Assembly: GCA_043820105.1 (NCBI GenBank)
Contig: JBDREC010000103.1
Coordinates: forward strand, 15,405-79,404
Direction of reading: 5' to 3'
DNA length: 64,000 nt
Source of the DNA: Pseudomonadota bacterium
Lineage (GTDB): Bacteria > Bdellovibrionota_F > JAHFAK01 > JBDREC01
A model generated the notes under the pieces. That model was not told the origin of the DNA. It saw only the letters and a list, made by a program, of their open reading frames with translations, and did not search any database. Both the position numbers and the translations under genes were made by a program. Positions within the stretch are counted from its first letter, which is position 1. Every line of letters starts with the position of its first letter. Positions 37,440 to 64,000 of this stretch are shown piece after piece.

Positions 37440-37464
37440 TTAATATTATTTTAAAGAAAAAAAT

Positions 37465-45589: not shown

Positions 45590-46582
45590 ATGCCTAGACC
45601 TAAAAGAATTGAATATGAAGGTGCTTGGTATCACGTCATGAATAGAGGTGCTAGCAAGAAAAACATTTTTCATTCACATGATGACAGGAACTTTTTTTTA
45701 AAAATGCTAGCGCATGTCAGTGATCAATGGAATTTTCAGACACATGCCTATTGTTTAATGACAAATCATTATCATTTGCTTGTGCATACACCAAATCTTG
45801 GCTTGTCAGAAAGTATGCGACATCTTTCTTCAATTTATACAATGAGATATAATAAGAAATATAAAAGGGATGGAGCATTGTTTAGAGGTAGATTCAAATC
45901 AATATTGTTAGATAGGGATGATTGTGCATCAGCAATATTAAGATACATTCACCAAAATCCCGTAAAGGCAGGTTTATGTAAAAATGTAGAATCATACAAG
46001 TGGTCTAGTCACAGAGCATATTTAAATGAAAAAAATAAACCGTCATTTCTATATACAGATGAGATATTGAAAGATTTTGCAAAGATTAGTTCTAAGGCAA
46101 GGCGAAAATTGCATGAGTTTGTGACTGGAAGAGAATCTAAAGATTTTATTAACTCTATAGAAGGGCCAAGACCTGTATCTGTAATGGGATCAGAGGGTTT
46201 TAGAGATTGGATAAAAGATAATTATTTATATAAAGTAAACAAAGATAAGTTAATTTCAACAGCAAGAAGTAATAAGCGCCCTGAAATTATACCAAAGCAA
46301 ATGTTATCATATGTTAGCTCTGAATTCAGTGTCAGTAAAAAAAGCATTATGGAAAATAAGTCTGGATCCATTGCAAATATACCAAGACTGACATATTTAT
46401 ATTTATTGCATAAAATTGCAGGTTTTACACATAATGAAATCGCTGAGATAAGCAAATCAGGAAACAAAGCTTCAGTAGCTCAAAACATTTATCGTTTTTC
46501 AAGGAGATTGGAAGAGGATGAATGTTTGGGCGAAAGGATTAAAGGTATGAAGGGGAATTTGTTGTCGAATGTCAAGGCCTGA
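45590..46582 (+). CDS. REP-associated tyrosine transposase (IS200-like HuH Y1 transposase) with C-terminal HTH-like extension
   Basis: YHVMNRG N-terminus, HuH motif HYHLLVH, catalytic Tyr context RYIHQNPVKAGL; flanked by inverted REP-like repeats. Confidence 0.7.
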   Translation: MPRPKRIEYEGAWYHVMNRGASKKNIFHSHDDRNFFLKMLAHVSDQWNFQTHAYCLMTNHYHLLVHTPNLGLSESMRHLSSIYTMRYNKKYKRDGALFRGRFKSILLDRDDCASAILRYIHQNPVKAGLCKNVESYKWSSHRAYLNEKNKPSFLYTDEILKDFAKISSKARRKLHEFVTGRESKDFINSIEGPRPVSVMGSEGFRDWIKDNYLYKVNKDKLISTARSNKRPEIIPKQMLSYVSSEFSVSKKSIMENKSGSIANIPRLTYLYLLHKIAGFTHNEIAEISKSGNKASVAQNIYRFSRRLEEDECLGERIKGMKGNLLSNVKA

Positions 46583-46588
46583 CCCCTC
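46567..46588 (-). repeat. REP-like element copy in inverted orientation immediately downstream of RAYT gene
   Basis: GAATGTCAAGGCCTGACCCCTC is the reverse complement of the upstream REP core; overlaps the RAYT stop region. Confidence 0.5.
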
Positions 46589-47268: not shown

Positions 47269-48522
47269 TTAATTATTTCCAATTCCATATAGTAGAAAAG
47301 ATTGGAAATGATATGCATCTATTTTTTCTTTATTATTATTAAAAAAACGTAATCCTATATCTGCAATAGGTCCTGTTTTATCATTATTAAATTCATAAAT
47401 GACCTCACCTAAGTTTGTATCAAATTCTTTTACTTCCAGTTCTATTGGCACTTCTTCATCATCGTACGGGTACAATACAACTTGAACATATTTCACATCT
47501 GGAATTCCAACTAAAGCTTGATATTCTGACATAAATTTTCTTGCTTTGCTATTGTCCTCTGATGCTAGGTACTCTTTGCTCAGTAATGCAGATATTATTA
47601 ACTGATAATTATCATCATTTTTGGTACCAGTAATTATTGGTTCATAAAAGAAAACATCATCCTTACTGATTGCATTTAAATTATTTGTACGAGAATGATA
47701 TGCCTTTATTGGTACAGGTGGATCTTGGTAAAGCTCATATGAAGCAATACCTTTACTTAAAGTCATATCAGGAGAATCTATAAAAAAATATGGGTCAAAA
47801 TATCTTTTGAAAGTATATACTGGCAAATTATTATAATCAAATATAAGAGTTTCTTCAAAAAGTTTATCTATTGGAAAATAGTACTCAATGAGAAAAATAT
47901 TATCATAATCTTTCTTAAAATATTTATAAAAAATGGGGTGTTCAAATTGAATTATTTCTCCAATTTTAAATAAGAATCCCTTTGTAATTTCTATTCTTGC
48001 AGAACCCCCTGTTTTAGGTATTTCATTATTTTCAAAAATCTCATCATATCTTACTTTGATTTTCCCATTTTCAATTGTAAAGTTCCCTGTAACTTCATAT
48101 CTATATTCAAAGAAATAGTAATGTCTTACATATACATTAACCTCTGATTCCATTTTTTCGAAATCAAATTTTATATAAACTTGCATATCATATTCTGGAC
48201 GATCTTTATATTGATCGTGAAAATCATAAATGGTCTCACCTTTATGCTTAATGTTTGCTAATTGATAGAGAACACTATTGCGCTTATAAAGTTTCTTTAG
48301 ATCTTCAATCTTTTCAATATCAGTTTTTACTATTGGCTTTGGAGGATCAGGAATCGGTGGTTTTGGTAGATCTAGAACTGGAGGAGTCGGAGGGATAGGT
48401 GCTGGTTCGTGAAGAATAACAGTAGGTTTAGGTTTAGATGTGGGCTTAGAAGTGTTTCCGTTACATCCGATTAATAAAGAAATTGTAATAAATATAGGGA
48501 TAAAAAGTTTGATGACTTTCAA
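47269..48522 (-). CDS. Hypothetical lipoprotein with Pro-rich linker
   Basis: Lipobox (LLIGCNG); PTPPVLDLPKPPIPDPPKP linker. Confidence 0.5.
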   Translation of the reverse strand: MKVIKLFIPIFITISLLIGCNGNTSKPTSKPKPTVILHEPAPIPPTPPVLDLPKPPIPDPPKPIVKTDIEKIEDLKKLYKRNSVLYQLANIKHKGETIYDFHDQYKDRPEYDMQVYIKFDFEKMESEVNVYVRHYYFFEYRYEVTGNFTIENGKIKVRYDEIFENNEIPKTGGSARIEITKGFLFKIGEIIQFEHPIFYKYFKKDYDNIFLIEYYFPIDKLFEETLIFDYNNLPVYTFKRYFDPYFFIDSPDMTLSKGIASYELYQDPPVPIKAYHSRTNNLNAISKDDVFFYEPIITGTKNDDNYQLIISALLSKEYLASEDNSKARKFMSEYQALVGIPDVKYVQVVLYPYDDEEVPIELEVKEFDTNLGEVIYEFNNDKTGPIADIGLRFFNNNKEKIDAYHFQSFLLYGIGNN

Positions 48523-48590
48523 TAGAGATCTCCCAATATATTGAAAGGCGATTTATGTAACGCTAAGCAGTAAAGGTCAAGGGAATAATC

Positions 48591-48794
48591 TCACCCAATC
48601 CCAAACCTCTTAATCTTATTAAACAAAGTCTTTCGACTTATCCCCAAATCATCAGCGGTCTTTGTCCTATTATCAAAATTATCTTTAAGCCTTTCAACAA
48701 TTATTTTCTTTTCATTGAATTCAGCAAAATCGTTGCAAGTGATAGCTGTAAAACTTGATGCATCATTGTTTTTTATTCTTAGGGGTAGGTGCAT
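48591..48794 (-). pseudogene. Fragment encoding only a Fis-type HTH (C-terminal end of an NtrC-family activator)
   Basis: TADDLGISRKTLFNKIKRFGI matches the C-terminal HTH of sigma-54 activators; no AAA+ domain upstream. Confidence 0.45.
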
Positions 48795-48878
48795 TAGATC
48801 TAACTTGCAGCATTGGAATGTCGTTTCGTTTTTATTTTAGAAAGTAATACATGGGTTTTAAGGGGTGTTTTAAGGATA

Positions 48879-48933
48879 TGCGAGAGGGGGGACTCGAACC
48901 CCCACACCTCACGGCACCAGATCCTAAGTCTGG
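48879..48933 (-). tRNA. Partial tRNA-Leu(TAG): anticodon arm, long variable arm, T arm and 3' acceptor strand only
   Basis: Minus-strand read gives CCAGA-CTTAGGA-TCTGG, TGCCGTGAGGTGT, GGGGG-TTCGAGT-CCCCC, CTCTCGC-A; no D arm or complementary 5' acceptor strand upstream. Confidence 0.6.
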
Positions 48934-49050
48934 CGCGTTGATTTTAAGAGTTGCCATGAAATCAATATGTTAAGGTTTTTGGTGATAAGGGAATTCTAAA
49001 TATCTTCTAAATTATACATGTAGTAACCGAATTTATGTAATGAGGTTGCT

Positions 49051-49260
49051 ATGACATTTCAGAAAAGATTGCTTTATTTGAGAAAAAGAAACTGCTTAAC
49101 GATTAGGCAGGTGAGTGAAAAATTGGGGGTTTCACAATCAACTTATTTTCAGTGGGAAGTTGAATCGTTTCCTACGAAGCCGGTTTATTATAAGATGTTG
49201 GCTATGCTTTATGAGTTGGATCTTGAGATGTTGATGTTTGGGGATAAAAAAGACTGTTAA
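49051..49260 (+). CDS. XRE-family helix-turn-helix transcriptional regulator (69 aa)
   Basis: LTIRQVSEKLGVSQSTYFQWE HTH pattern; GAGG RBS; its 3' portion is duplicated at 50752-50890. Confidence 0.6.
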   Translation: MTFQKRLLYLRKRNCLTIRQVSEKLGVSQSTYFQWEVESFPTKPVYYKMLAMLYELDLEMLMFGDKKDC

Positions 49261-49338
49261 TTTGAATTGTTTTATATTATTATTTATTCCAATTAATTAT
49301 AACAATTTAAACTTAAGTTTATGCATATGGAGCTAATA

Positions 49339-50748
49339 ATGACCAAAAAAGAACTGGATTTAATTTTACATGAAGGGGAAAACTATAAAATCGAGTTCAA
49401 AGAAAATGTTAACTCTGATTTGTCAAAAGAAATGGTTGCTATGGCAAATTCATCTGGAGGTAGGATATTTATTGGGATTAATGATAAAAACGAAGTAATA
49501 GGTGTGAAAGCAACAAATGCTTTGTTATCTAAAATTCAGAATATGGCCCAGGATTGTGATCCCTCAATTATTATCAACATTAATACTTATAAAAATATTT
49601 TAATTATTAATGTTAAAGAAGGTTTAAATAAACCATATCGCTGTAGTAAAGGTTTTTATACTAGGAATGGTTCAAATTCACAGAAAATGACAACCAGAGA
49701 GATAACTGAATTTGTGCAAGCAGAAGGTAATGTTAGGTTTGATGAAAAGCTTCGGGAAGATATAAATATAAGTAAAAAAATTAAAAAAGAACTGCTTAAT
49801 CATTATTTGCAATTAGCAAACATTAATAAGACAATGGATGATGAATTTATACTAGAAAATTTAGGAGTACTGGAGCAAAAGAATAAGAAATCATATCTTA
49901 ATAATGCTGGGCTATTGTTTTTTTGCGATTCTACTAACCCACATCTTCATTATGCAAATATTACTTGTGCTTTATACAAGGGCAGTGAAAAGCTAAATGT
50001 TTTGGACAGAAAAGATTTTTCATCTGATATAATTTCTAATATCGAAGATACCATGTTGTTTTTGAAAAAGCATTTAAATCTTAGATATGAAATAACATCA
50101 TTAAGAAGAAAGGAAATTCTTGAGCTGCCTGAAGTTGCTTTGCGTGAAGCAGTAGTCAACGCTGCTTGCCACAGAGACTATTTTGAAAAAGGTGCCAATA
50201 TTATGGTTGAGATATTTGATGATAGGGTCCAAATAACTAACCCTGGTGGATTGCCTAAAGGCTTGTTACCAGAAAAATTTGGAACCAGAAGCGTATCAAG
50301 AAATCCTTTAATCACTTCATTGTTCCATCGTGTTGGCTACATTGAAAAAATGGGAACAGGTATAGGTAGAATAAGAAAGTCCCTCAAGGAATCAGGTAAT
50401 TCAGAAGCTGTATTTGAATATGACAGTTTTTTTTCAGTGATATTTAAAAGATCTATCTTAGAAAATGGAGCTAGTTCAGACATACAAGTTACCGGACAAG
50501 TCACCGGACAAGTTCCCGAACATGTCACCAAACTACTTAGTATATGCAAAGGAGAGTTGTCTCGTAGTGAATTGCAGGATATATTAAAATTAAAGCACAG
50601 AGAGAACTTTGTGAATTTATATCTAAACCCAGCATTGGAATCTGCTTTTATCGAAATGACAATTCCAGGCAAACCAAGATCAAGCAAACAAAAATACCGC
50701 TTAACAAAAAAAGGGAAAGATTATTTAAAGAAACTGCCTGAAAATTAA
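49339..50748 (+). CDS. Schlafen/AlbA_2-like domain protein with HATPase_c_4-like domain and C-terminal wHTH (COG2865-type regulator)
   Basis: N-terminal KELDLILHEGENYKIEFKE ... ANSSGGRIFIGIND; central REAVVNAACHRDYF ... NPGGLP ... SRNPLI ... MGTGIGRI; VTGQVTGQV linker repeat; start at ATG 49339 with GGAG RBS. Confidence 0.6.
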   Translation: MTKKELDLILHEGENYKIEFKENVNSDLSKEMVAMANSSGGRIFIGINDKNEVIGVKATNALLSKIQNMAQDCDPSIIININTYKNILIINVKEGLNKPYRCSKGFYTRNGSNSQKMTTREITEFVQAEGNVRFDEKLREDINISKKIKKELLNHYLQLANINKTMDDEFILENLGVLEQKNKKSYLNNAGLLFFCDSTNPHLHYANITCALYKGSEKLNVLDRKDFSSDIISNIEDTMLFLKKHLNLRYEITSLRRKEILELPEVALREAVVNAACHRDYFEKGANIMVEIFDDRVQITNPGGLPKGLLPEKFGTRSVSRNPLITSLFHRVGYIEKMGTGIGRIRKSLKESGNSEAVFEYDSFFSVIFKRSILENGASSDIQVTGQVTGQVPEHVTKLLSICKGELSRSELQDILKLKHRENFVNLYLNPALESAFIEMTIPGKPRSSKQKYRLTKKGKDYLKKLPEN

Positions 50749-50752
50749 GCAC

Positions 50753-50890
50753 GTGAGTGAACGAATAGGTGTTTCGCAGTCAACTTATTTCCAGTGGGAG
50801 GTTGAATCGTTTCCAACGAAGCCGGTTTATTATAAGATGCTGGCTAAGCTTTATGGGTTTGATGTTGATAGGTTGATGTTTGGGGGGTGA
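50753..50890 (+). pseudogene. Duplicated 3' fragment of the xre-like gene (approx 85% identical to 49100-49260)
   Basis: Direct nucleotide comparison; begins right after the Schlafen-like gene stop; lacks the 5' part of the HTH. Confidence 0.55.
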
Positions 50891-51172
50891 TTAAAGGGAT
50901 AAATAGCGTCCTTATGACCTGCCACAGAATAAGATTATTAATTAGTTGGTAGGGACGAGGGGGCAAAGGTGTTGTTGCTTAATTCAGCTTGATAGCTATC
51001 ATATTTATCGCAAAAGAGATTATGTTTTATCAATATTCATTGTTGCTATTTCTCGTAATTCTTATCACATTTGGAGGTGTTGAAAATTATAGTAAAAAAT
51101 ATTATGCAATACGAAAAAAAATGATGAAAAAGAACGAGCAGATGGCTTGTGTAATCAATTGGGGGATATCAG

Positions 51173-51418
51173 ATGAAAAATGATGATACAATAAGAGTTT
51201 CAGAATTAATAGAAATTCTAAATAAATACCCAAAAGATATGGTAGTTGTAACAGATGGATATGAAAGCGGTTATGAAAATATACTTTACCCTGGAATAAT
51301 TGATGTTATCCTGGAACCTGAAAACATGTATTTTGACGGTGAATATCAAAATGCTAACGATAAGGATAAAAACAAACTTGAAGTATTAGCTATTAGGCGA
51401 AATAAAAGATGGGATTAA
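51173..51418 (+). CDS. Hypothetical small protein (81 aa)
   Basis: GGGGGA RBS approx 7 nt upstream of ATG. Confidence 0.35.
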   Translation: MKNDDTIRVSELIEILNKYPKDMVVVTDGYESGYENILYPGIIDVILEPENMYFDGEYQNANDKDKNKLEVLAIRRNKRWD

Positions 51419-51729
51419 GGGGAGGATCACCATGAAGCTTAAAATGAAAAATTAGAGAAGGTTTCTATAAATTGTGCAGGATCTTCAACGCTTGGTGATT
51501 CTGAAGAAGATAATGCCAATTGCTATTCAGTTTATAAATTTACCTACAACAGGATTGAGGAAGAGCAAATAAAGATGATTGAATAATTGTAAATAAAAAA
51601 TATTTAATTTATCTGAAAATTTAGGATGGTTTTGTTTAAGGATGATTTGAATTTAATGTATCTTATTGCTATTTATTTTCTTGTATTTAAACATATATTG
51701 AAAAGTATCAAAGGGGAAAATGAAAAAAA

Positions 51730-52413
51730 ATGTGTTTTAAATCTTATTTATCTTTCCATGTCATAACATCAACATATTTAGTTCTTTTAATGTGTATAGC
51801 AATCCTTACGTGTTTTTATGGTACGGTAATAATAATACTTTTAAAAAACACGGATAAGAAAAATAGGGGAAAATTCATTAAAAGCTACTTTACCAAAGAC
51901 AAACTATATAAGGAAAGTGCAAGTTTAGGGGCATTTATTGCCCTGATTTTATCCTATTTTTACCTTTATTACAAAAGCAATGGAATAGGAGATATACGAT
52001 TCATAGTTGCACTTGAAGAGAGTCCTCTTATAAGCCTTATATGGAGTGCATTTGCAATTGGTTTTATAATAAGAGCTTTTTATCATGGATTTTGTGAAAT
52101 AAGAGATGCAAGAGTTATTGTTAAGGGATATAAAAAATGGATTAAATGGAAGAGATTTCACTTCGTTTGGTCTATAGCAGAAATATTATCCATGTTTATT
52201 CCGTCTACTTTAATTGTAAAAGGATGGATAAAAGGCTTGTCTTTGGGAGTAAGAATATTAAGCCCTGTGCTTCGGAAGGCACTGTCTAAAAAGGTTGATA
52301 AAATAATTCATTCAGAAATATCAAAATCCATTGGGGCAGCAATTATTAATGGCGTCCTGGAATATTTTGCAAGAATAGTATTTATTCTTTTAGCGATTAA
52401 CATTGTGACTTAA
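51730..52413 (+). CDS. Hypothetical polytopic membrane protein
   Basis: Several predicted TM helices; no motif recognised. Confidence 0.4.
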   Translation: MCFKSYLSFHVITSTYLVLLMCIAILTCFYGTVIIILLKNTDKKNRGKFIKSYFTKDKLYKESASLGAFIALILSYFYLYYKSNGIGDIRFIVALEESPLISLIWSAFAIGFIIRAFYHGFCEIRDARVIVKGYKKWIKWKRFHFVWSIAEILSMFIPSTLIVKGWIKGLSLGVRILSPVLRKALSKKVDKIIHSEISKSIGAAIINGVLEYFARIVFILLAINIVT

Positions 52414-52980
52414 TTCATTGAGATTTAATAAAATATATAAAAATCCAAATTGTTTAAAAACATCGGTTTGCTAGCCGCTTACATTGGAAATAAAATAAAT
52501 ATATACAATGGAAAATTAAATTTTTTTTTTAACACCTGAGCTTATATGGTGGTTGTGATGGTATTGGCCCATATAGGATAACTGAAGACGATGGGAAATG
52601 TGCCTAATAAGCCAAGGGATTTTATAAAGGTTCTTCTGGAAAAGGAATCTGCCATAAGATTTTCCTATTTATGATTATTTGCATATTCAGGAAAATGCAC
52701 TATAACAGATGGTTGTGACAGGTTAGGGCATTTGCATGAAGAAAATTTTAGAACACCTGATATCGAAGATTATACTTTAATATCAAAATTAGCAAGTTAT
52801 GGGTGCAATGAAAACATGATTTCATGATTTGAAATAACAATTATGTGTAAGGTTTGCAAAAAGATGACTACAAATAAGAAAATTTGGTATTTCAAATCAT
52901 ATCAATTCAAATAGATAAAATATTACTTCATTTTCTTATTCAAAATTAATAAATCACAGATATTTATATAATTGATAAAC

Positions 52981-54804
52981 TTAATTAATTCTTTTTAAAT
53001 ATACATGTACTTGTTCATAAATTTCCTTATAAGTTCCATCTTTCTTCAACCAGTTATTTGTATCAGTAGATATCCAATCTTCTTTTTTATATTCTTTTTT
53101 TCCTTCCTTTTTTACATCTAATCTATTTTGTAATGAATTGATAATTTTTAAAATATAGTTATCAAAATCTTCTCCAATCTCCAAGCAATACTGTGAATTT
53201 TTTGAAATATATTTTTGACCGTGTAATGTTTTAAGTTTATCTTTTAAATTATCAATAGTTGAAATACTATTAATATCATTTTTGAAAAAATAGATTGCAC
53301 TCAAAGCAAGTATTACATCATTTATATAATTATTTTGAAGAATTTCATACTTCATAATATTATTGTTTTTTATCTGATTAATCTTTTCTGATATTCTATA
53401 AGATAGCATTAATTTATGAAATTGGTCTTCTTCATTTATTGTCATGCTAAAAATATTATCATAACAATGATCTGAAAAAACAAGTTTATATCTTCCTTTT
53501 GTAGATATTGGTATTTGGAGAAAAAAAGACATAAAAGATATTCCAATATCTATGTTCTTAATCTTTAAATGCAAAGGACTTTTACCAAAAGGATTACGGT
53601 ACTTGCTTTTTTCAACAGTTGCCCATTCACCGTCCTTTTTGTCATAAAAGATTCCAACATCATCAAGGAATTTAAAAATTTTAACTTGTATTCTATCACC
53701 TGAATGTAGATCTCTTGTGCTAATAGCATTTTGACTATTACTGGCAACAGCAATATCCTTTGAAATTTTTGAAATTTTTGATTTTTTATTTATTTTTGTA
53801 AGTCGCATTAGAATCTGTACATTGTCAGGCAATTCGTTTACAATTCTTGTTAATGTCTTTGTAGTCTGTCCACCATTAACAATTTGAAAATTAGTAATCT
53901 GTAGTTTATTTTCATTTAATATCTTAAAGTCTTCACATATTGAATTGATACCATTGTTTAATATCCAAAAATTGGAACGACTACCTTTTGAGTATTCGTG
54001 TTTAATTTTTGAATTGATTTCATTTTCTCCTTTATAATAACGGACATTTAAAGCTAAAATCATCTCTTTATGTTTTTCTATTATAGGCCTCAAGGAGTTC
54101 GCTTTTATACTCGTAACAATAGTTTCAATTTCGGTTTTATCGTTATCATCATAAAAGTTTGAACATTTTTTAAAATATTCTTTTTCTACAATATCTATGA
54201 TTATTTCATTTTTAGGCATTTCAGTATCATCATAAAGCATTTCAAGACGGTTATAGTCAAAAAAATCAGGATAAAAATTAATTCCTTTATCTTCATAATT
54301 AGTGAATAATGCCATTATGTCAGTTTTGATATTGGTAGAATCAAAGGTGTTGTCTATATAATAAAAGTAAATATTATAATTATTATTTTCAATATTTTGA
54401 GGTGTTAATAAAGTATTAATTTCGTTATCAATTATTTTTTGTAACTTTTTGTTCGGTTTTTGCTCATCATAATTTATTTTTAAAAGCCGATCTATAAATT
54501 TTTTATTTTTTCTAATCTCATCTGTATTTAATAGATTATTATTTGAATATTTGAATTGAAATACATATATATCATGGTTATTTTGATTAGTAAAAATAGC
54601 ATCATTCCCTAAATCATTTGACATATCAACAATGTGCTCTTTAATGAACTCATTAATGTCTATGCCATCGTAGTCAAATTCAATTATTTTCCTGCTAAAA
54701 CACTCTTTAATAATAAAATGACCAAATGCTGTACCATCATTAGGATAATTAAAGGTTTCTCTTAAATCTGAAACCTGATCTTTTATTCTTTCATAAAAAC
54801 TCAT
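52981..54804 (-). CDS. AIPR-like abortive-infection family protein (putative)
   Basis: N-terminal restriction-endonuclease-like region (YDGIDI ... GNDAIF ... IYVFQFKYS) and central FQIVNGGQTTKTL motif as recalled for AIPR; start set at ATG 54804 with AGGAGA RBS. Confidence 0.45.
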   Translation of the reverse strand: MSFYERIKDQVSDLRETFNYPNDGTAFGHFIIKECFSRKIIEFDYDGIDINEFIKEHIVDMSNDLGNDAIFTNQNNHDIYVFQFKYSNNNLLNTDEIRKNKKFIDRLLKINYDEQKPNKKLQKIIDNEINTLLTPQNIENNNYNIYFYYIDNTFDSTNIKTDIMALFTNYEDKGINFYPDFFDYNRLEMLYDDTEMPKNEIIIDIVEKEYFKKCSNFYDDNDKTEIETIVTSIKANSLRPIIEKHKEMILALNVRYYKGENEINSKIKHEYSKGSRSNFWILNNGINSICEDFKILNENKLQITNFQIVNGGQTTKTLTRIVNELPDNVQILMRLTKINKKSKISKISKDIAVASNSQNAISTRDLHSGDRIQVKIFKFLDDVGIFYDKKDGEWATVEKSKYRNPFGKSPLHLKIKNIDIGISFMSFFLQIPISTKGRYKLVFSDHCYDNIFSMTINEEDQFHKLMLSYRISEKINQIKNNNIMKYEILQNNYINDVILALSAIYFFKNDINSISTIDNLKDKLKTLHGQKYISKNSQYCLEIGEDFDNYILKIINSLQNRLDVKKEGKKEYKKEDWISTDTNNWLKKDGTYKEIYEQVHVYLKRIN

Positions 54805-54903
54805 AATAAATCTCCTATTTAAAAATTCAATTGTATCTATCATGTCATGAATTAATAGTCAAAATTCACTCAAGCTAATTAAAAAATTTGGTTCTCGTCC
54901 GTC

Positions 54904-55506
54904 TTACGATAACAACTTCGCGATAGATGGAACTATAAGATCGTGACTTAAACCTTGAGTATGCCGGGCGGAATGATCCAGATCAGGCATCTGGTTTTTT
55001 ATACATTTTGATTCCGTGTGATAATAAATATTATTCAATGCACCTTCGTGTATAAAACGCTTTTTAAGATTTGCTATATTTTTTTTATTTGAACCTCCCC
55101 AGACATACCATCTCCATGGAAAGACTCTATTTTCAGAATCACATTTGGGAGGTTTATCATAATTCGACAGTTCGATAATTGCTTCATCTAGTGAGGGATT
55201 ACATAAGTAAAACAAATTCTGAACCTGAATATATGAATTTCTGGAATATGTTTTGTTAGAATATTCATAGGCTTTTTCAACGATTGAACGAACATTCGGT
55301 AATAGTTTGTCATTTGACAGTTTAATTTTTTGAATTCCCGATATTGACAGATCAGTGGGTTTTGCAGAACCCGGGTTCTTTCCTGCAATTGCTCCAATGC
55401 ATGTATCGTTTGCTTCAGGTTTTGCAATAGATTCAAGATATATTCTTGTATCAAACCTGAAAATATTGGAGCCATCCTTTTTAAATATTGCCCAATAGAA
55501 AGCCAT
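54904..55506 (-). CDS. DUF1643-like protein
   Basis: CIGAIAGKNPGSAKPTD, IQVQNLFYL and WYVWGG resemble the DUF1643 pattern recalled from memory; GAGGTG RBS. Confidence 0.4.
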   Translation of the reverse strand: MAFYWAIFKKDGSNIFRFDTRIYLESIAKPEANDTCIGAIAGKNPGSAKPTDLSISGIQKIKLSNDKLLPNVRSIVEKAYEYSNKTYSRNSYIQVQNLFYLCNPSLDEAIIELSNYDKPPKCDSENRVFPWRWYVWGGSNKKNIANLKKRFIHEGALNNIYYHTESKCIKNQMPDLDHSARHTQGLSHDLIVPSIAKLLS

Positions 55507-55872
55507 AAATCACCTCTTATTAAAATATATTCTTATTGATACCTTAATCAACCTTCACAATAATTACATTAGTCCACCTTGCAAGACTCATTTTAATGAA
55601 TATATTACCTGGAAATCAATATGCCAAAAAATAATTAGAGCAAAGCTCAAATCTTTGTGTTTTCATTTAATTTATGGATACAGTAAACAAATCTATAGGG
55701 AAGCGTGAATATATCTATAATATCGAAGCGCAGTTCATCTATTTTCTTTTTTGTTTTACCATGACAAATATCAAGAATATATTTTTTAAGATTAAAGATT
55801 ATTCTCTATTTATTATTATGTATTATTCTTATTGGAATATAAATAAGGTTGTTTTTTAGGTTGAATTTTAAT

Positions 55873-56142
55873 TTAGCTATTTGCAAATCTTAATCCCATA
55901 AAAGGTATTTCTTCAATTTCAAGATCCTTCCATCCAGTATATCCAAAAACCATATCTGATAATTTTCCCTTTATACGGTATTCATCATAGACTTTTTTTC
56001 CTTCTGTGCTGGCGAAGATAACCTTACCTTTTATCACTATATTTTTGTTGGAATCTTTCTTTTTTTCCTTAAAATTATCCAGCAAAACAAAAGTATTAGG
56101 ATACATTTTTTTAATTTCATCCCATGTCATTAGTTCTTCCAT
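55873..56142 (-). CDS. Hypothetical small protein (89 aa)
   Basis: ORF only. Confidence 0.3.
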   Translation of the reverse strand: MEELMTWDEIKKMYPNTFVLLDNFKEKKKDSNKNIVIKGKVIFASTEGKKVYDEYRIKGKLSDMVFGYTGWKDLEIEEIPFMGLRFANS

Positions 56143-56306
56143 TTTGATTATCCATTTAATGTTTTATTTAATATTTAATAATTTATAATTTTACATATCT
56201 TACGAATAAAGGCAATACGAATTAAATAGGTTTTTAAAAAAAATAATCCAAAGATTGACCCAATCTGACAAACATTCATGATAAATAAGTCTGTTTAAAA
56301 TTAAAT

Positions 56307-58727
56307 ATGATTAACAAAGGAAAACTGGTGAATATGATGGATACTAAATATGGTTTTTCACATTTGCATTTGCATACCCAATATAGTCTGCTGGATTCAA
56401 CAATAAAAATAAGTGATCTTATAGAAACAGTTAAAAAACTAGACATGGACTCTGTAGCAATTACAGACCATGGAAATCTTATGGGAGCGATTGAATTCTA
56501 CAAGGAAGCAAAAAAACAGGATATAAAAGCAATTATAGGCTCTGAGGTTTATATTGCACAAACTGGGCGTTTTGATAAAAGTACAAAACTGCATCATCAT
56601 CTTGTTCTGCTCGCGGAAAACAATACTGGGTACATTAATCTCATAAAACTTGTCAGCATAGGATATACAGAAGGATATTATAATGTCCCAAGAATAGACA
56701 ACGAAGTTTTAAGGCAACATTCTGAAGGACTAATAGGACTATCTGGTTGTATGGGTGGAGAAATTCCGCATTACATTTTAAGAGATGAACTTTCCACAGC
56801 AATTAAAGCTGCAATGGAATATAAAACAATTTTTGGAGCTGAAGCATTTTATCTTGAACTTCTGGAAACAGGATTGTCAGGTCAGAAAAAAGTAAATGAC
56901 GGACTTATTCATATATCAAAAGAATGTAACATTCCCCTTGTTGCTACTAACAATTGTCATTATTTAAAAAAAGAAGAGCATCAGGTTCATGCAGTTTTAT
57001 CGTGTATTCAAGCAGGGAAAACATTAGATGAAATCGAAATTGAAACTGATCAGCTATATCTGAAATCAGCACATGAAATGCTGGACCTTTTCAAGGATCA
57101 TCCTGAAGCAATCCAAAACACAAAGAAAATTGCAGACAGATGCAACGTAGAAATTGAACTTGGCAGGAAACAGCTGCCTCATTTTCAGACACCGGAAAAA
57201 ATTTCTCATGCAGCTTTTCTTGAAAAACTTGCCTTTGAAGGATTGGATATGAGATTTGACACAATTATAAGCGATAGGAACATATCAAAATACACTAAGA
57301 GATTGAAACATGAACTTGAAGTTATAAATAACAAAGGATTTGCTGCATATTTCCTTGTGGTCTGGGATTATGTAAAATATGCCATGGAAGCAGGGATTCC
57401 AGTGGGACCTGGAAGAGGTTCCTCTCCAGGTTGTCTTGTTGCTTATTTGCTAGGAATAACAGACATTGATCCGGTAAGATACAGCCTGCATTTTGAAAGG
57501 TTTCTGAATCCTGACAGGGATATATTGCCTGATTTTGATATAGACTTCGGCTACGATCAAAGGGATGAAGTTATAGAATACATTACAAAAAAGTGTGGGA
57601 AAAACAAGGTATCCAAAATAATAACATATGTAACTTTCAGAGCAAGAAGTGTCATCAGGGATGTAGGAAGAGCTCTTAATATTCCATATGACGAGGTTGA
57701 TAAGGTAGTAAAGCTTTTATCTGAATTTTTTGATATGAGTCTTGAAAGAGCATTAGAGCTTAAACCAGAACTTAATAAAATACATGAAAAAAACAAAATA
57801 TACCAGGATCTAATTAGGTTTTCATTCACATTAGAGGGACTTAAGCGTCACACAGGTGTTCATACATGTGGCATTGTAATATCTCCAAAAGCACTTACCC
57901 AATATATTCCATTATATTGCAACACATCTGGTGATCAGATAAGTCAGTTTACAAAAGATGAACTGGAAGATATAGGACTTGTAAAATTTGATATTCTTGG
58001 TCTTAAAGCATTAACCGTTTTGGATAATGCCTGTAAACTGATAAATAAAAATGGTGATGAAATATTTGATATAAAACAAATACTACATGATGATCCAAAA
58101 GTATTTGAACTGCTTACATCAGGAAACACATCAGGTGTTTTCCAGTTTGAAAGTTGTGGAATTAAGGATATCATAAAAAAGATAAAACCAGACTGTTTTG
58201 AAGATATAATTGCAGCTTACGCATTATACAGACCAGGTCCATTAGCCAGCGGCATGACAGAAGATTTTTGGAAAAGAAAACATGGACTCATTGCAAGCAA
58301 TTATCCACATCCAAAGCTTGAAGATATTTTAAAAGTAACATATGGAATTATTGTCTACCAGGAACAGATAATGGAAGCAGCTTCAAGAATTGCAGGATTG
58401 CCTTTTCAACAGGCGGATATTTTACGCAGAATAATGGGCAAGAAGAAAGCCAATCAAATAGAAAAGCAAAAGGAAATCTTCGTAGAAGGTGCCAGGAAAA
58501 ATGATATATCATATGAAAAAGCAAATGAGATATTTGATCTTTTAGAATATTATTCAGGATACGGTTTCAACAAGGCACATGCTGCAGCTTATGCATTGAT
58601 CTCATACAGATGCGCATATCTTAAATGTCATTATCCTATGGAATATTCTGCAGCCTTAATATCTTCAGAAAAAGATAACCCTGAAAAGGCATTGAGATAT
58701 CTTAAGGAATGGAAAAGCATGAATTAA
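56307..58727 (+). CDS. dnaE: DNA polymerase III alpha subunit (DnaE), C-terminally truncated: PHP domain and polymerase core only (806 aa)
   Basis: PHP motif FSHLHLHTQYSLLD; polymerase-core GYGFNKAHAAAYALISYRCAYLKCHYP; ends about 45 residues after this motif, where a full-length DnaE would continue for several hundred residues. Confidence 0.7.
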   Translation: MINKGKLVNMMDTKYGFSHLHLHTQYSLLDSTIKISDLIETVKKLDMDSVAITDHGNLMGAIEFYKEAKKQDIKAIIGSEVYIAQTGRFDKSTKLHHHLVLLAENNTGYINLIKLVSIGYTEGYYNVPRIDNEVLRQHSEGLIGLSGCMGGEIPHYILRDELSTAIKAAMEYKTIFGAEAFYLELLETGLSGQKKVNDGLIHISKECNIPLVATNNCHYLKKEEHQVHAVLSCIQAGKTLDEIEIETDQLYLKSAHEMLDLFKDHPEAIQNTKKIADRCNVEIELGRKQLPHFQTPEKISHAAFLEKLAFEGLDMRFDTIISDRNISKYTKRLKHELEVINNKGFAAYFLVVWDYVKYAMEAGIPVGPGRGSSPGCLVAYLLGITDIDPVRYSLHFERFLNPDRDILPDFDIDFGYDQRDEVIEYITKKCGKNKVSKIITYVTFRARSVIRDVGRALNIPYDEVDKVVKLLSEFFDMSLERALELKPELNKIHEKNKIYQDLIRFSFTLEGLKRHTGVHTCGIVISPKALTQYIPLYCNTSGDQISQFTKDELEDIGLVKFDILGLKALTVLDNACKLINKNGDEIFDIKQILHDDPKVFELLTSGNTSGVFQFESCGIKDIIKKIKPDCFEDIIAAYALYRPGPLASGMTEDFWKRKHGLIASNYPHPKLEDILKVTYGIIVYQEQIMEAASRIAGLPFQQADILRRIMGKKKANQIEKQKEIFVEGARKNDISYEKANEIFDLLEYYSGYGFNKAHAAAYALISYRCAYLKCHYPMEYSAALISSEKDNPEKALRYLKEWKSMN

Positions 58728-58778
58728 AAGATCAACTATGACAAATTGCACACATAAATCTCATCAGGACAGAGATAT

Positions 58779-60287
58779 TCAAGGAAGGGCACAGATGTTC
58801 TCCAGCTCCTCCAAAAGTTTCACCATCGCCAATGTATCCTGACCACAATAAACTTTAAGAGCCTTGTAGATCTTTTCCTTTATTTCTAATTCAGTTGAAT
58901 CTGAGATCATCTCTAAATATTTAAGTGAGGCTATTCCTCCTTCTCCGATTTCAAGATCGTGGTAATTCATGTTGGGAATAAAAGCAGGGAGCACTTTTTT
59001 AATGGATGCTGAACCCTCCTGATTTGGATGATATAAGAAGCGTTGTTTAAATGGGATCAATAGGTCTTTCATTTTTTGGTTAATTTCTAAAAGCTCCTTT
59101 TTATATTCAGGAAAAGCAGCGGCAAGCGATTTGTTGATAGTAGCTTCAAAAGGTTTATTGTAAACTATGACGGTTCCAGCACATTTGCCATTTTTACAAC
59201 AGGATGAAACAAGCATTTTGACCAAACCTGCTCTTGGATCAGAAAATTCATTGTGCAAATATTCAAGGTGTTCAAGTGTGCCACCCTTTTTTTTCTGGAT
59301 ATGCAGAGAAAACTGAAAGGGAACCTGTCCATAGGGTTTTGTTCCATCAAAAAGCGGAATAGCAGGAAAAATAGTTTCATAATCAAGAAAATATAGGGGA
59401 TATTTTAGCAGTTTTAAAAAATCGTCTATTTTTGCTTTATCCTTATAAATTTCACCATTTTGATAACTTTCAATATCAATTCTTTGTTTGCTGCTAAGAT
59501 CAAGGTCTAAAGGGATATCTCCGACCTTAATAATATTTTGATCTAAAAGTTTTTTAAGCTTATTTTTATTTCTTTTAAATATATTATAGACTGAATATTT
59601 TGGGATGCTACTCCAGCAGTAGTCAATAAAATCACAGTCAAAAGGATTGTTACAATGAGAACCCACAGGAATTTCAAACTCTTCAGACTGGGATAATATT
59701 TTCAAAAACTTCTGCACATTTCTTTTTACTTTAGCTTGTCCTTTAATTGCAGCTTCTGTTACATCTTCAAGAACAAAAAATTCAGAAAGATCAATTTCTC
59801 CATTCTTAATAAATTTATTATTTATATGCATTAATATTGATTTATTGATTTTATAGCCCGCGTTTTCAAAAACATACCGTTGAAAAGCAACATCATCAAG
59901 GTGATATTTTGCAACATGAGTGGATTGCTTAACTTCAATCATGTCCCAGCCCTGACCATCAGCTGCCTTTCTAAGAATATCAATCCTGCAAAACAAGCCC
60001 TCTGTGGTTGAAGCAGTTGCCTCAAAAATAATAGCCGAGCCGCCTGCTATATTTTTTTTCGTGGAATCAATAGCACCAGGAATATTTTTGTAATCTTCAG
60101 TAATCTCAATTCCAGCTTTAAAATATTTCTGTGCGAGTTTCCCAACTTCATGTCCCTGATCAAAAGTATGCTGTAAGGATAAAGGTATTTCTTCAGGTAA
60201 AAGATCTTTTCTGTGTTTATGAAGCCAAAGTCTGAGAGGACATTGGCAGCCTAAAAGATAGTTCGATTTTGAAAGTAAAAGTTGCAT
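58779..60287 (-). CDS. Predicted nuclease: Cas4-like PD-(D/E)xK domain with Fe-S Cys ligands fused to DUF2779-like (DnaQ-like) exonuclease domain
   Basis: N-terminal GCQCPLRLWL, RIDIL ... DMIEVKQS, C-terminal CNNPFDCDFIDYC Cys cluster; second half YFLDYETI ... VPFQFSLH. Confidence 0.5.
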   Translation of the reverse strand: MQLLLSKSNYLLGCQCPLRLWLHKHRKDLLPEEIPLSLQHTFDQGHEVGKLAQKYFKAGIEITEDYKNIPGAIDSTKKNIAGGSAIIFEATASTTEGLFCRIDILRKAADGQGWDMIEVKQSTHVAKYHLDDVAFQRYVFENAGYKINKSILMHINNKFIKNGEIDLSEFFVLEDVTEAAIKGQAKVKRNVQKFLKILSQSEEFEIPVGSHCNNPFDCDFIDYCWSSIPKYSVYNIFKRNKNKLKKLLDQNIIKVGDIPLDLDLSSKQRIDIESYQNGEIYKDKAKIDDFLKLLKYPLYFLDYETIFPAIPLFDGTKPYGQVPFQFSLHIQKKKGGTLEHLEYLHNEFSDPRAGLVKMLVSSCCKNGKCAGTVIVYNKPFEATINKSLAAAFPEYKKELLEINQKMKDLLIPFKQRFLYHPNQEGSASIKKVLPAFIPNMNYHDLEIGEGGIASLKYLEMISDSTELEIKEKIYKALKVYCGQDTLAMVKLLEELENICALP

Positions 60288-60727
60288 ATTTTAATCCTTA
60301 TTGATTTAACTCATTTTATTATAATGTATCAGCATGTCAATTAATGACTTCTTTTGTTGTATTTATATTTTTAAAGGATGTTGTTCATAATATGACTTCC
60401 TTTACCAAAAATATCTAAATTTTATTGCTTATTCAGGCTGTATAAATATCCTGATTTTAGTAAAATTGAAACAAATATCTTTATTAATGGATATCCAAAT
60501 AAAATAATCCATGGAACAGAATCGAAAATCCAAAGTAATACCTATTGGAGAAACCATAATAATAGCCAGTTTTCCAGTTTCAGATAGTAAATTTCTCATT
60601 TTAGTGATAAAAGTCTTTTGATCAACTTTTTCACATGACTTTTTTCATGGCAATAACTAAGATATATCACTTATTTAAAAAGCATTCTTTCAAGAGGAGT
60701 TATGGAAGCTAAAAGGAATCAACTACA

Positions 60728-62083
60728 ATGAACAAAAAAGAACTAGACTTCATTATTAAACAAGGTGAAGGTCAGCATATAGAGTTTAAAGAATCTTTTG
60801 ATAAATCTCTTGTTAAAGAAATAATTGCTTTTGCAAATGCTCAAGGGGGCAGGATTTATTTAGGGATAAATGACAAAGGACTAATAAAAGAAATTAATAT
60901 TACAAATTCCTTGAAATCTCAAATTCAGGATATTGCTAAAAATTGTGATCCTTCAATTCTTGTCAATTTAAGTGCATATAAGAATATATTAATTGTTAAT
61001 GTTCATGAAGGAAATGACAAACCTTATTCTTGTTCAAGTGGATTCTATTTAAGGATGGGAGCAAATACACAAAAGTTAACGCGAGATGAAATCATGCAAT
61101 TTGCCATTTCCGAAGGAAAAAAACTGTTTGATGAGCAAATTTGTGATGATTTTGTTTTTTTAGATGATTTTGATGAAGATAAACTGAAAAGTTACTTAAA
61201 AGAAGCAAAAATTGAAAGCGAGCTTGATAATAAATCAATCCTTTTAAACCTTGGTGTTGCAAAACTTATAAATAAGCAATTCAAATTTACGAATGCTGGG
61301 ATACTATTTTTTGCAAAAAAACCTTCAAAATATTTTATGACAACAAAGGTAGTTTGTGCTGAATATGCAACAAACGAAAAAGTTAAAATATTAGATCGTA
61401 AGATTTATGATGAGGGTATTTTAAAAAACCTAAAAAATGCAATTAACTTTATAAGTAAAAGAATTAAAATAGAATTTGAAATTAAATCTGCTAAAAGAAA
61501 GGAAATCCCACAATTTCCAGAGGAAGCTTTTAGAGAAGCAGTTGTTAATGCCATAATGCATAGAGATTATTTTGATAAAACCTCTGAAATTATGATTGAA
61601 TGTTACAGGAATAAAATTGTTGTTTATAATCCCGGAGGACTTGTCAAATGGTTAAGACCCGAAGAATTTGGAAAAATTAGTAAACTTAGAAACCCTTTAA
61701 TTGCTTCACTTTTATCAAGAACAATATATGCTGAAAAAATGGGAACTGGCATAAAAAGAATGAATAAGGCTATGATCAAAGCCGGATTGAAAGAGCCTGC
61801 TTATGAATATTATGACACTTCTTTTTATACACAATTTGATGATAAAAATATCGAAAAAAGAAAAGGGAAAAGTTCGGTGAAAAGTTCGGTAAAAAGTACG
61901 GTGAAAAGTTCGGTGAAAATTCTTAATCTTATTAAAAAAGATGCATATATTACAATTCCAGAAATCGCTAAAACCCTAAATTTAACAACAAGAGCAATTG
62001 AAAAGCAAATAGCAAACTTAAAAAAAACAGGCAAAATAAAAAGAATTGGCCCTGACAAAGGCGGATATTGGGAGGAATTATGA
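60728..62083 (+). CDS. Schlafen/AlbA_2-like domain protein with HATPase_c_4-like domain and wHTH (paralogue 2)
   Basis: KELDFIIKQGEGQHIEFKE ... ANAQGGRIYLGIND; REAVVNAIMHRDYF ... NPGGL ... RNPLIA ... MGTGIKRM; KSSVKSSVKSTVKSSVK linker from a 15-bp tandem repeat. Confidence 0.6.
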   Translation: MNKKELDFIIKQGEGQHIEFKESFDKSLVKEIIAFANAQGGRIYLGINDKGLIKEINITNSLKSQIQDIAKNCDPSILVNLSAYKNILIVNVHEGNDKPYSCSSGFYLRMGANTQKLTRDEIMQFAISEGKKLFDEQICDDFVFLDDFDEDKLKSYLKEAKIESELDNKSILLNLGVAKLINKQFKFTNAGILFFAKKPSKYFMTTKVVCAEYATNEKVKILDRKIYDEGILKNLKNAINFISKRIKIEFEIKSAKRKEIPQFPEEAFREAVVNAIMHRDYFDKTSEIMIECYRNKIVVYNPGGLVKWLRPEEFGKISKLRNPLIASLLSRTIYAEKMGTGIKRMNKAMIKAGLKEPAYEYYDTSFYTQFDDKNIEKRKGKSSVKSSVKSTVKSSVKILNLIKKDAYITIPEIAKTLNLTTRAIEKQIANLKKTGKIKRIGPDKGGYWEEL

Positions 62084-63138
62084 AGGCCACCAAAGAATCC
62101 AATCCTACCTATCAGAATGCAATTACCATAGTTGAGATATTTCTTTATTTAAAGCAGTTTCCAAGAGGTGTTTTATCATCTCAAATACAAGAGGAATATT
62201 ATCAGGATAAGGATGACAGGACCTTTCATAGAGTTAAAAAAGCCCTGGAAGATTTTCTTTTTGATCCTCAAGGTGATAAGGTATTCTTTTTTGAAGGCGA
62301 GGGTAAAAATCAGACTATACGCTTGCATCCAAAGCATTTTAATACCTCTGATGTAATGGAATGGCATCTCTTTGGTTTAATGATGTCCAATGTAATGATG
62401 ACCAACATCAAGGGTGATGTGGATTCCTCGCCTGATATTAAAAGCGGGGTGCTGCAATTGCGTGATCTTATTGTTAGTAATCTTGAAGCTGATTTTTATA
62501 AGAGTAATGCAGATGGTGAAATAAGCGAAGTTAGAGAAAATCTATTAAATAAAATTAAGAAGAAATATTACTGCAAGAAAGTTGGGCAGAAGATTTATGG
62601 CAAAGATGACAAATCAACTGAGATCCTTGATAAAATTACACAGGCTTTATATAAAGAAAACAAGCTAAAGATTCATAAGTATAAAAATGAAAAAAAGAAA
62701 GACTGGGTATTTTCACCTTATACACTTTTATCATATAATGATGCCTTTTATGTAATGGGAAAGCTTGCAAAGGGCTATATGCTTACCCTTGCTATTGACC
62801 GGATTGATGAGCTTGAAGTTTTGAAGAAAACCTTTAATTATCCCAAAGACTATCATCCCTCAGAGATTCTCAATAAAGGCTTTGGAGTAGGGGACGTGAA
62901 TCAGGAGGCTGTTAAAGTTGAGCTCTTGTTTGACCAGGCTGTTTCCTATCTAATCACAGAACGTTTTTGGCATCATTCACAAATGATTACAGAAAAAGAA
63001 GATGGTTCTGTTTTACTGGAAATGGAAGTGCCTGACAGCTTTGAGTTAAGAAAGTTTGTTTTGAGTTTTGGGTCAAATGTGAAAGCATTAGCGCCAGATT
63101 CGCTTGGACAATTTATTAAAGAAGATAAGAGCAAATAG
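62080..63138 (+). CDS. WYL-domain transcriptional regulator (wHTH-WYL-WCX; BrxR/CapW/PafBC-like)
   Basis: N-terminal wHTH, central WVFSPYTLLSYNDAFYVMGK WYL-like segment, C-terminal WCX-like region; start ATG 62080 overlaps upstream stop as ATGA. Confidence 0.5.
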   Translation: MKATKESNPTYQNAITIVEIFLYLKQFPRGVLSSQIQEEYYQDKDDRTFHRVKKALEDFLFDPQGDKVFFFEGEGKNQTIRLHPKHFNTSDVMEWHLFGLMMSNVMMTNIKGDVDSSPDIKSGVLQLRDLIVSNLEADFYKSNADGEISEVRENLLNKIKKKYYCKKVGQKIYGKDDKSTEILDKITQALYKENKLKIHKYKNEKKKDWVFSPYTLLSYNDAFYVMGKLAKGYMLTLAIDRIDELEVLKKTFNYPKDYHPSEILNKGFGVGDVNQEAVKVELLFDQAVSYLITERFWHHSQMITEKEDGSVLLEMEVPDSFELRKFVLSFGSNVKALAPDSLGQFIKEDKSK

Positions 63139-63232
63139 ATAGTATTCCTCTGTTCTAGATTAAGGTAAAACGAACATAGAAGGTTTATTAAGCTGAAACA
63201 TAATAAAGTAATGCGACAATTTGCCCTTTAAT

Positions 63233-63577
63233 TTAAAAACCTACTTCAGTATTTGAGCGGCCTTGAGAACATGTAGTTCCAACATTTGCACTGCCTTCAT
63301 AGCAGCCACCATTTACAACGGTATTATTGTTATTAGTTCCAGCATTGCAAACACCATAATAAAAACTTCCAGATGTATTTGATGGTCCAGTGTAACATCC
63401 GCGGTTAACGCCTACATTGGCTCCAGTTCCGGTTGAACAATAAGAATCTCCGCTTATTCCACTTCCGGATCCGCAAAGGGTGTTGGATGCTATGCTTCCA
63501 CTTGCACCTGAACCTGTATAGCAATAGTTTAAGCCAGGCAATGAAATGTTTATAAGCTTAGGCGTTAGGTATTTCAT
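63233..63577 (-). CDS. Small Cys/Gly/Ser/Asn-rich protein with conserved MKY... N-terminus (paralogue 2)
   Basis: ATG at 63575-63577 with GGAGA RBS 8 nt upstream; Cys at regular approx 13-residue intervals; paralogue of 44713-45000. Confidence 0.55.
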   Translation of the reverse strand: MKYLTPKLINISLPGLNYCYTGSGASGSIASNTLCGSGSGISGDSYCSTGTGANVGVNRGCYTGPSNTSGSFYYGVCNAGTNNNNTVVNGGCYEGSANVGTTCSQGRSNTEVGF

Positions 63578-63758
63578 TATTTTTTTCTCCAGAATATTAG
63601 AATAAAAACCCAATAATAATGCTCATGTATTTGAGTTCTTTTATTTATTATTTTATACCTATTTGCAAACAAAAAACTATATAAAATTAAAAATATGCAC
63701 TTTTCCATTCTGTGGTATTTTCCTGATAGTTTTGAATATAGTTAAATATTATGTTTAC

Positions 63759-63986
63759 TTACATCTTTCCATTACAATACCACCTGGTTTTGCCATCAAC
63801 TTTTTCAGAATAAATTGGAACACCTGCTTTTTCAATAGCTTCAATGTCCCTGCGTAAAGTTCTTAAAGATACCTTGAAATCTAAAATAATTTTTTGATGA
63901 ATATCTTCAAGGCTTACTCCAAACCTTGCTTTTTCTATAATTTTACAGATTCTTAAAATCCTTGCTACCTGATCTCCTCTGGCCAT
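63759..63986 (-). CDS. Small HTH DNA-binding protein (DeoR/HTH_11-like, resembling the N-terminal domain of WYL regulators)
   Basis: ATG at 63986 with GGAGG RBS 5 nt upstream; ARFGVSLEDIHQKIILDFKVSLRTLRRDIEAIEKAGVPI HTH pattern; 75 aa only. Confidence 0.5.
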   Translation of the reverse strand: MARGDQVARILRICKIIEKARFGVSLEDIHQKIILDFKVSLRTLRRDIEAIEKAGVPIYSEKVDGKTRWYCNGKM

Positions 63987-64000
63987 AGATGCCTCCCGAC

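Follow-up and report, generated by a model that had tools for sequence, protein, structure and literature searches.

In P4-like elements and pathogenicity islands, the integrase usually adjoins the regenerated tRNA gene. Islander islands are flanked by a regenerated tRNA gene and a displaced fragment of it in the same orientation, with a 3′ fragment lying downstream of the tRNA gene; 3′ fragments are found in 3760 of 3919 such islands, and anticodon-centred sites in 2083 of the 3919 (PMC4383910). Prokaryotic Schlafen nucleases with an Ex4(E/D)xK motif are described as antiphage tRNases in a recent paper (Nat Microbiol 2026, PMC13056530). The paper gives Slfn-HisKinase and Slfn-HisKinase-HTH as the commonest architectures, at 34% and 19%, and describes the characterised bacterial Schlafen protein as cutting mainly tRNA-Lys, tRNA-Ala and tRNA-Met, in the anticodon arm, and not tRNA-Leu (PMC13056530). 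Here we describe a 64,000-nucleotide (nt) stretch of contig JBDREC010000103.1 (assembly GCA_043820105.1), referred to in full as the window, in which a 5′-truncated tRNA-Leu(UAG) gene lies beside a patch of defence-like genes that includes two Schlafen-type proteins. The orientation and extent of the truncated gene are compatible with those of the 3′ fragments in tRNA-integrated islands. We give about an even chance to the reading that it is a displaced relic attachment (att) fragment, left by integrase-mediated insertion into tRNA-Leu(UAG) and now beside a much-rearranged defence patch.

The truncated tRNA-Leu(UAG) gene

The minus strand at 48879–48938 holds the 3′ 60 nt of a tRNA-Leu(UAG) gene, corresponding to tRNA positions 22–73. 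An earlier note on this DNA had placed a 5′-truncated tRNA-Leu(TAG) fragment at 48879–48933; this is borne out, with homology running about 5 nt further, to 48938. Read from 48938 to 48879, the fragment is A-CGC-G-CCAGA-CTTAGGA-TCTGG-TGCCGTGAGGTGT-GGGGG-TTCGAGT-CCCCC-CTCTCGC-A. These parts are, from 5′ to 3′, the 3′ strand of the D stem (CGC), G26, the anticodon arm CCAGA-CTTAGGA-TCTGG with anticodon TAG, a 13-nt variable arm, the T arm GGGGG-TTCGAGT-CCCCC, the 3′ acceptor strand CTCTCGC and the discriminator A73 at 48879; CCA is not encoded. The long variable arm, the anticodon and A73 all agree with Leu, and tRNA-Leu is a type II tRNA. The best match to the fragment is an intact tRNA-Leu(TAG) gene in a Planctomycetaceae metagenome-assembled genome (MAG; L088), which agrees with it at 56 of 59 positions and shares the acceptor stem (GCGAGAG/CTCTCGC). 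Other tRNA-Leu 3′ halves listed against the fragment are identical at 49–56 of 59 positions. With 56 of 59 positions matching a tRNA from another phylum, the fragment is without mutational decay. The exact 55-nt fragment sequence has no match in the genome, viral or metagenome contig collections.

The 5′ acceptor strand and the D arm are absent, apart from the 3′ strand of the D stem, as the earlier note had also observed. Compared with the 5′ part of the tRNA, the 45 nt upstream of the fragment reach a best local score of 5, which is at chance level (shuffle p = 0.18), and the tRNA 5′ half GCGAGAGTGGCGGAATTGGCAGA is found nowhere in the window. ARAGORN calls no tRNA genes in the window, and Rfam at its gathering score finds no tRNA match there; below that score the Rfam tRNA model aligns locally to the fragment over model positions 8–63 with 20.3 bits (gathering cut-off 29), so a covariance model does not call a full-length tRNA. 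The Rfam alignment proposes a D arm with the stem TGGC at 48953–48956, which we reject: its stem is only 4 nt long, its 15-nt loop lacks the conserved GG, no acceptor strand accompanies it and its similarity is at chance level. The only canonical T-arm hairpin in the window, on either strand, is the one in the fragment, and no other tRNA remnants were found in the window. The fragment is therefore a genuine 5′-truncated, non-functional remnant of tRNA-Leu(UAG), given the 56/59 identity, the sub-threshold Rfam match, the lack of an ARAGORN call and the missing 5′ half.

CUN codons account for 45 per 1000 codons in core genes (CUA for 9.7), which requires a working tRNA-Leu(UAG) elsewhere; the fragment is therefore an extra, partial copy of the kind that integration would yield. 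Its extent also fits such an event, spanning the complete anticodon stem-loop to the 3′ end as anticodon-centred att sites would give. Because the fragment is on the minus strand and a 3′ fragment lies downstream of the tRNA gene (PMC4383910), the island would lie on the high-coordinate side, above 48938. The flanking genes are consistent with this polarity: on the low side the adjoining gene is an orphan whose GC content at third codon positions (GC3) is core-like, and the first cargo gene on the high side has homologues at 69–74% identity. In the proposed sequence of events, a tyrosine-integrase element carrying its own copy of the tRNA 3′ part would have entered a tRNA-Leu(UAG) gene by crossover in or near the anticodon loop. 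An intact tRNA gene would have been regenerated next to the integrase at one end of the element, and the original 3′ part left as a direct repeat at the other. Native chromosome, including the lipoprotein gene, would then run through 48878, and the island would start at 48939 and continue beyond 64000, its far end, with an intact tRNA-Leu and an integrase, lying outside the window. Later insertions and deletions would have turned the island into a mosaic of defence-type and broken genes.

Comparable remnants were sought with a degenerate tRNA-Leu(TAG) pattern, which gave 122 matches in other genomes. Of these matches, 115 lie in intact tRNA-Leu(TAG) genes and four are internal 3′ fragments; the loci concerned, in Acidobacteriota/Terriglobia MAGs, are given below, with two positions each for L053 and L121.

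L053: 6030–6071 and 7343–7429
L121: 4631–4715 and 4788–4829
L090
L122

For two of the four, an intact tRNA-Leu(TAG) lies about 0.1–1.3 kb upstream in the same orientation, which shows that tRNA-Leu relics of this kind occur elsewhere. Three of the fragments have homology beginning within the anticodon loop; the case of L053 is less clear, and its homology may extend upstream in degenerate form. All four are probable relic att sites. A regular-expression screen for integrases over 120 tRNA-Leu loci gave no usable candidates.

Gene content around the remnant

The first 20 kb of the window are plainly chromosomal, with genes for ScpA/B, TrpRS, GltX, SurE and Pcm and genes of the ExbD/TonB/TolB/OmpA families. 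Since the same contig holds the ScpAB, TrpRS, GltX, SurE, Pcm and Tol-Pal genes, the idea that the window is a free element carrying a phage-type attachment site (attP) is ruled out. The low-coordinate side of the remnant contains the following open reading frames (ORFs; lengths in amino acids, aa) and elements.

43749–44560, strand not assigned: decayed insertion sequence (IS), a 186-aa remnant of a DDE transposase between 31-nt terminal inverted repeats
44713–45009, minus: Cys-rich ORF, paralogue of 63233–63613
45301–46587, plus: REP (repetitive extragenic palindromic)-associated tyrosine transposase (RAYT), gene at 45590–46582 (NF047646, 2e-22)
47269–48522, minus: orphan lipoprotein-like gene (MFH1729769.1, ABIA04_15260)
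48591–48794, minus: 67-aa ORF with a Fis-type HTH_8 domain (E = 8e-7), 84 nt downstream of the tRNA 3′ end

The only match to the lipoprotein-like gene among 5.8 billion proteins is itself, and its GC3 of 0.179 resembles that of core genes; it probably represents native sequence flanking the tRNA gene on its downstream side. The small HTH_8 ORF could be either a stand-alone regulator or the tail of a sigma-54 activator, and its comparison with the NtrC-like protein of the window gave no informative similarity. The inverted repeats of the decayed IS are 94% complementary, and a related transposase is present in full length (362 aa) 11 kb away, at 32617–33705. The RAYT has a DnaA-like helix-turn-helix (HTH) tail and REP-like inverted repeats (GGGGTCAGGCCTTGACA...) on both sides; the adjoining 113-aa ORF at 46592–46933 matches no family. 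Elsewhere in the window, a GGTGAC/GGCGAT repeat run at 31551–31658 encodes (Gly-Asp)n within a 542-aa Laminin_G_3 protein, and radical SAM genes occupy 35593–38265.

The high-coordinate side carries genes that can fairly be termed defence-like.

49051–49260, plus: XRE-family HTH regulator of 69 aa and first island-side gene (HTH_19/HTH_3; PHROG transcriptional regulators)
49321–50748, plus: Schlafen-type protein 1, Slfn/AlbA_2 (PF04326), GHKL-like HATPase_c_4 and Fic-like_C winged helix
50727–50890, plus: 5′-truncated second XRE copy, 159 nt, 86% identical to 49085–49243
52545–52664, minus: short frame resembling a twin-arginine signal (SRRTFIKSLGLLG) in a 570-nt gap, probably another gene remnant
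52981–54843, minus: AIPR-family protein matching AbiU (Pfam AIPR 2.8e-32; PADLOC AbiU 1.3e-33)
54904–55506, minus: 200-aa ORF of no family (no Pfam match at E ≤ 5, no NCBIfam or PHROG match)
55873–56142, minus: 89-aa ORF matching the PADLOC candidate PDC-M08A (E = 2.6e-12, profile positions 1–83 of 86)
56307–58727, plus: 3′-truncated dnaE of the DnaE1 housekeeping type (DnaE1 equivalog, aligned to positions 5–801 of 1146)
58779–60287, minus: DUF2779 protein of a widespread family, weak Cas4-like nuclease similarity in the N-terminal half
60728–62083, plus: Schlafen-type protein 2, Slfn/AlbA_2 (PF04326), HATPase_c_4 and winged HTH
62068–63138, plus: WYL + WCX regulator, its start overlapping the end of Schlafen gene 2 by 16 nt
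63233–63613, minus: Cys-rich 126-aa ORF, paralogue of 44713–45009 (33% identity, pairwise E = 3e-10)
63759–63986, minus: 75-aa HTH_11 ORF, to judge by its size probably the N-terminal stub of another WYL-type regulator

Most of the gene labels proposed earlier for this side hold up, namely the two Schlafen-like ATPases (both with SLFN_AlbA_2 and HATPase_c_4), the AIPR-like protein, the WYL regulator, the Cys-rich peptide and the truncated dnaE. A DUF1643-like label for 54904–55506 finds no backing in the profile searches. The nuclease called Cas4-like is a DUF2779 protein for which the Cas4 part of the label is weak, with a Pfam E of 0.005, below the cut-off, and a PADLOC value of 4e-4. The AbiU match of the AIPR protein covers residues 61–555, and the same protein matches PHROG 1841 (Abi alpha-like) at 4e-42. 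A PHROG scan of ten island ORFs returned regulators, an Abi protein and families of unknown function and no structural, packaging or lysis genes. By megablast, the window shows no phage or plasmid similarity beyond the tRNA piece, for which the only phage and plasmid DNA matches are intact Bacteroides-type tRNA-Leu genes. A prophage or plasmid origin is thus unsupported by both the scan and the megablast search. The two Cys- and Gly-rich paralogues have in common an N-terminal 'IMKY..P.L' and the motif 'YC.TGSGA', belong to no known family and are locally GC-rich (0.40–0.46 in a genome of 0.30); they may be secreted or modified peptides.

The two Schlafen-type proteins match PF04326 at 3e-21 and 3e-20 and carry the Ex4ExK motif, as E20-x4-E25-x-K27 in protein 1 and E14-x4-E19-x-K21 in protein 2, which is invariant in a 12-sequence alignment; we regard both as putative tRNases on sequence grounds. 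The closest homologues of protein 1 (P0123–P0135) align with its N-terminal ~375 residues (~79%) at 69–74% identity, and their own C-terminal domain is HTH_24. The C terminus of protein 1 is a Fic-like_C domain, common to a more distant subgroup at ~50% identity, and the protein looks like the product of a C-terminal domain swap. Close homologues of protein 1 occur in a type I restriction-modification operon and beside PglZ-domain and SMEK/CTD10 genes. Homologues at 69–74% identity, compared with 54% for the nearest homologue of this genome's DnaE (among 5.8 billion proteins), suggest horizontal spread of Schlafen gene 1.

The junctions on this side include several broken genes. A direct repeat (49085–49243 and 50727–50885; 159 nt, 86% identical) brackets the first Schlafen gene, the last ~7 codons of which overlap the start of the truncated XRE copy. 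Insertion into a protein gene with restoration of the target would look like this, as would recombination of two XRE-led modules. The 159-nt repeat gives a hint that the XRE–Schlafen block might be a mini-cassette targeting XRE genes, which it would restore on insertion in the manner of tRNA-targeting islands. The dnaE stump stops after residue 806, with homology running exactly to the stop codon (~58724). It keeps the PHP, polymerase and finger domains and has lost the C-terminal ~350 aa; the C-terminal part (beta-binding, HhH and OB-fold) is nowhere in the window. NCBI lists the stump as an ordinary 796-aa coding sequence (MFH1729778.1); possible explanations are a pseudogene copy, a split gene and a mis-join.

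Proposed integration and its alternatives

The earlier note took the fragment for the scar of site-specific integration into a tRNA 3′ end, and the geometry and the defence cargo fit this interpretation. A number of observations weigh against it. Even with up to 3 mismatches allowed, the 60 nt occur only once in the window, which also contains no intact tRNA-Leu in the 15 kb upstream of the fragment or elsewhere, and no Phage_integrase or recombinase match in any ORF of at least 120 aa (Pfam scans), in keeping with the earlier statement that no integrase is visible; the leftover small ORFs, judged by eye, are unlike integrases. An integrase missing at the fragment end is itself expected, because integrases usually adjoin the regenerated tRNA gene. 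Homology of the fragment begins at tRNA position 22, 4–5 nt 5′ of the anticodon stem and not in the loop, a start that is compatible with an anticodon-centred attP yet not diagnostic of one.

The composition and content of the two flanks also count against a clean island edge. Mean GC3 is 0.216 at 1–43.6 kb, 0.31 at 43.6–48.9 kb (p = 0.006) and 0.26 at 48.9–64 kb (p = 0.012); the high side does differ from the core, as a composition check suggested in the earlier note was to reveal, but the rise begins at 43.6 kb on the low side and not at the fragment, and neither overall GC nor the tetranucleotide profile shows a step there. The decayed IS, the RAYT and another gene remnant lie on the low side, and the Cys-rich paralogues flank the fragment on both sides, so that describing the defence-like genes as bounded by the fragment was too strong. 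Three further truncated genes (the XRE copy at 50727, dnaE at ~58724 and the HTH_11 stub) make the high side a mosaic. The claim that everything there is accessory goes too far, since the dnaE piece is of the housekeeping DnaE1 type with near-core GC3. The best representative of the DUF2779 protein is 46–49% identical, with no near-identical foreign copies in the library search; with relatives at that distance, recent import does not seem to apply to every cargo gene. The genome is an isolated, deep-branching MAG, the contig of DnaE's nearest homologue has no gene order in common with the window, and an empty site cannot be shown because no close relatives exist.

The same sequence would also result if the fragment were an in-situ pseudogene, a rather unlikely but serious alternative in which a resident tRNA-Leu(UAG) lost its 5′ third through a neighbouring illegitimate insertion or deletion and no att duplication took place. 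The arrival of the XRE–Schlafen block (48939–50726) could serve as an example of such an event, another tRNA-Leu(UAG) copy sustaining the cell. The 1.8-kb block adjoining the break has another truncated gene at its far side, and abrupt truncations are common nearby, at the XRE copy (50727), dnaE (~58724), the HTH_11 stub, the DDE transposase remnant and the 52545–52664 fragment. The lack of an integrase (in ORFs of at least 120 aa) and of a repeat partner in the window argues for the same scenario, as would a break at position 22 itself, outside the canonical crossover sublocations. Loss of the resident gene, however, requires a second copy, and a second copy is just what integration yields. 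The retained part, undecayed at 56/59, is exactly what integrases duplicate, from the anticodon stem-loop to the 3′ end, and lone 3′ fragments of tRNA-Leu(TAG) are known in other genomes.

An assembly origin for the same junctions is improbable. A chimeric MAG contig, mis-joined at 48938/9, 50727 and 58724 through short repeats (tRNA and XRE), would account for genes that end abruptly at the junctions, among them the essential-type dnaE, and two of the junctions do fall on repeated sequence, the tRNA gene and the XRE paralogue, in what is a metagenome-assembled genome for which one 123-kb contig is on record. Against this, composition is uniform across the junctions, assemblers usually break at repeats and do not join through a 60-nt partial tRNA, and three independent mis-joins within 10 kb would be unusual. 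Far less probable still is a functional tRNA half, transcribed and acting with the adjacent Schlafen-type putative tRNase as decoy, inhibitor, guide or regulator. The undecayed fragment lies 383 nt from a gene encoding the Ex4ExK motif of Schlafen tRNases, and there is a possible precedent in mammalian SLFN11, which reportedly cleaves type II tRNAs, to go by the title of a 2018 study by Li et al. If the half were functional, it would tie a type II tRNA fragment to a bacterial Schlafen protein as type II tRNAs are tied to human SLFN11. Promoter-like sites at 48400–49400, however, are at chance level (4 found, 4.2 expected) with no terminator, the XRE gene separates the fragment from the Schlafen gene, which is encoded on the other strand, and three loci with close Schlafen homologues (two distinct gene contexts) have no adjoining tRNA piece. 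The cleavage preference described in the bacterial Schlafen paper, mainly for tRNA-Lys, tRNA-Ala and tRNA-Met and not for tRNA-Leu, is a further point against it (PMC13056530).

Integration into tRNA-Leu(UAG) followed by rearrangement stays the preferred explanation. If the far end of the island is present on the full contig, the island could be mapped to the nucleotide; if it is not, the fragment would be a tRNA pseudogene made by rearrangement. Either outcome leaves current understanding unchanged, and the value of the locus lies mostly in annotation, since it marks what is probably a relic integration site, together with a small patch of defence genes, in an uncultured, deep-branching lineage labelled 'Pseudomonadota bacterium' at NCBI. 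The patch holds two proteins of the Schlafen-HisKinase type, a family recently shown to defend bacteria by cutting tRNA (PMC13056530).

Relation to known systems

The Schlafen-type proteins of the window resemble the prokaryotic antiphage tRNases in combining an N-terminal Slfn/AlbA_2 domain with Ex4(E/D)xK, a GHKL/HisKinase-like domain and a winged HTH (PMC13056530). The characterised system has an Ig-like sensor (PMC13056530), whereas the window proteins are of the HisKinase type and are putative tRNases compared by sequence; protein 1 further differs in ending in Fic-like_C rather than HTH_24. The locus as a whole resembles defence islands and hotspots beside tRNA genes, where unrelated defence-type genes occur with WYL and XRE regulators and mobile debris. 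The likeness extends to the Schlafen-HisKinase-HTH architecture, present twice, to the AbiU/AIPR protein and to the PDC-M08A-like ORF, all recognised here from sequence alone. Unlike such islands, the high side contains no complete multi-gene defence system by PADLOC profiles.

As in tRNA pseudogenes formed by deletion, the truncated gene is not called by a tRNA finder; unlike them, it retains the very part that integrases duplicate, in undecayed form. Compared with islands integrated in tRNA genes (Islander-type, P4-like and pathogenicity islands), the window shows no partner intact tRNA, integrase or second repeat, its cargo is a mosaic of truncated genes with a dnaE stump, and mobile DNA lies on the supposedly native side. 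It is like these islands in having a 3′ tRNA fragment that runs from the anticodon arm to the discriminator, defence cargo on the 5′ side, a native-looking gene on the 3′ side and no integrase at the fragment end. The feature is in these respects an ordinary one, of a known kind.

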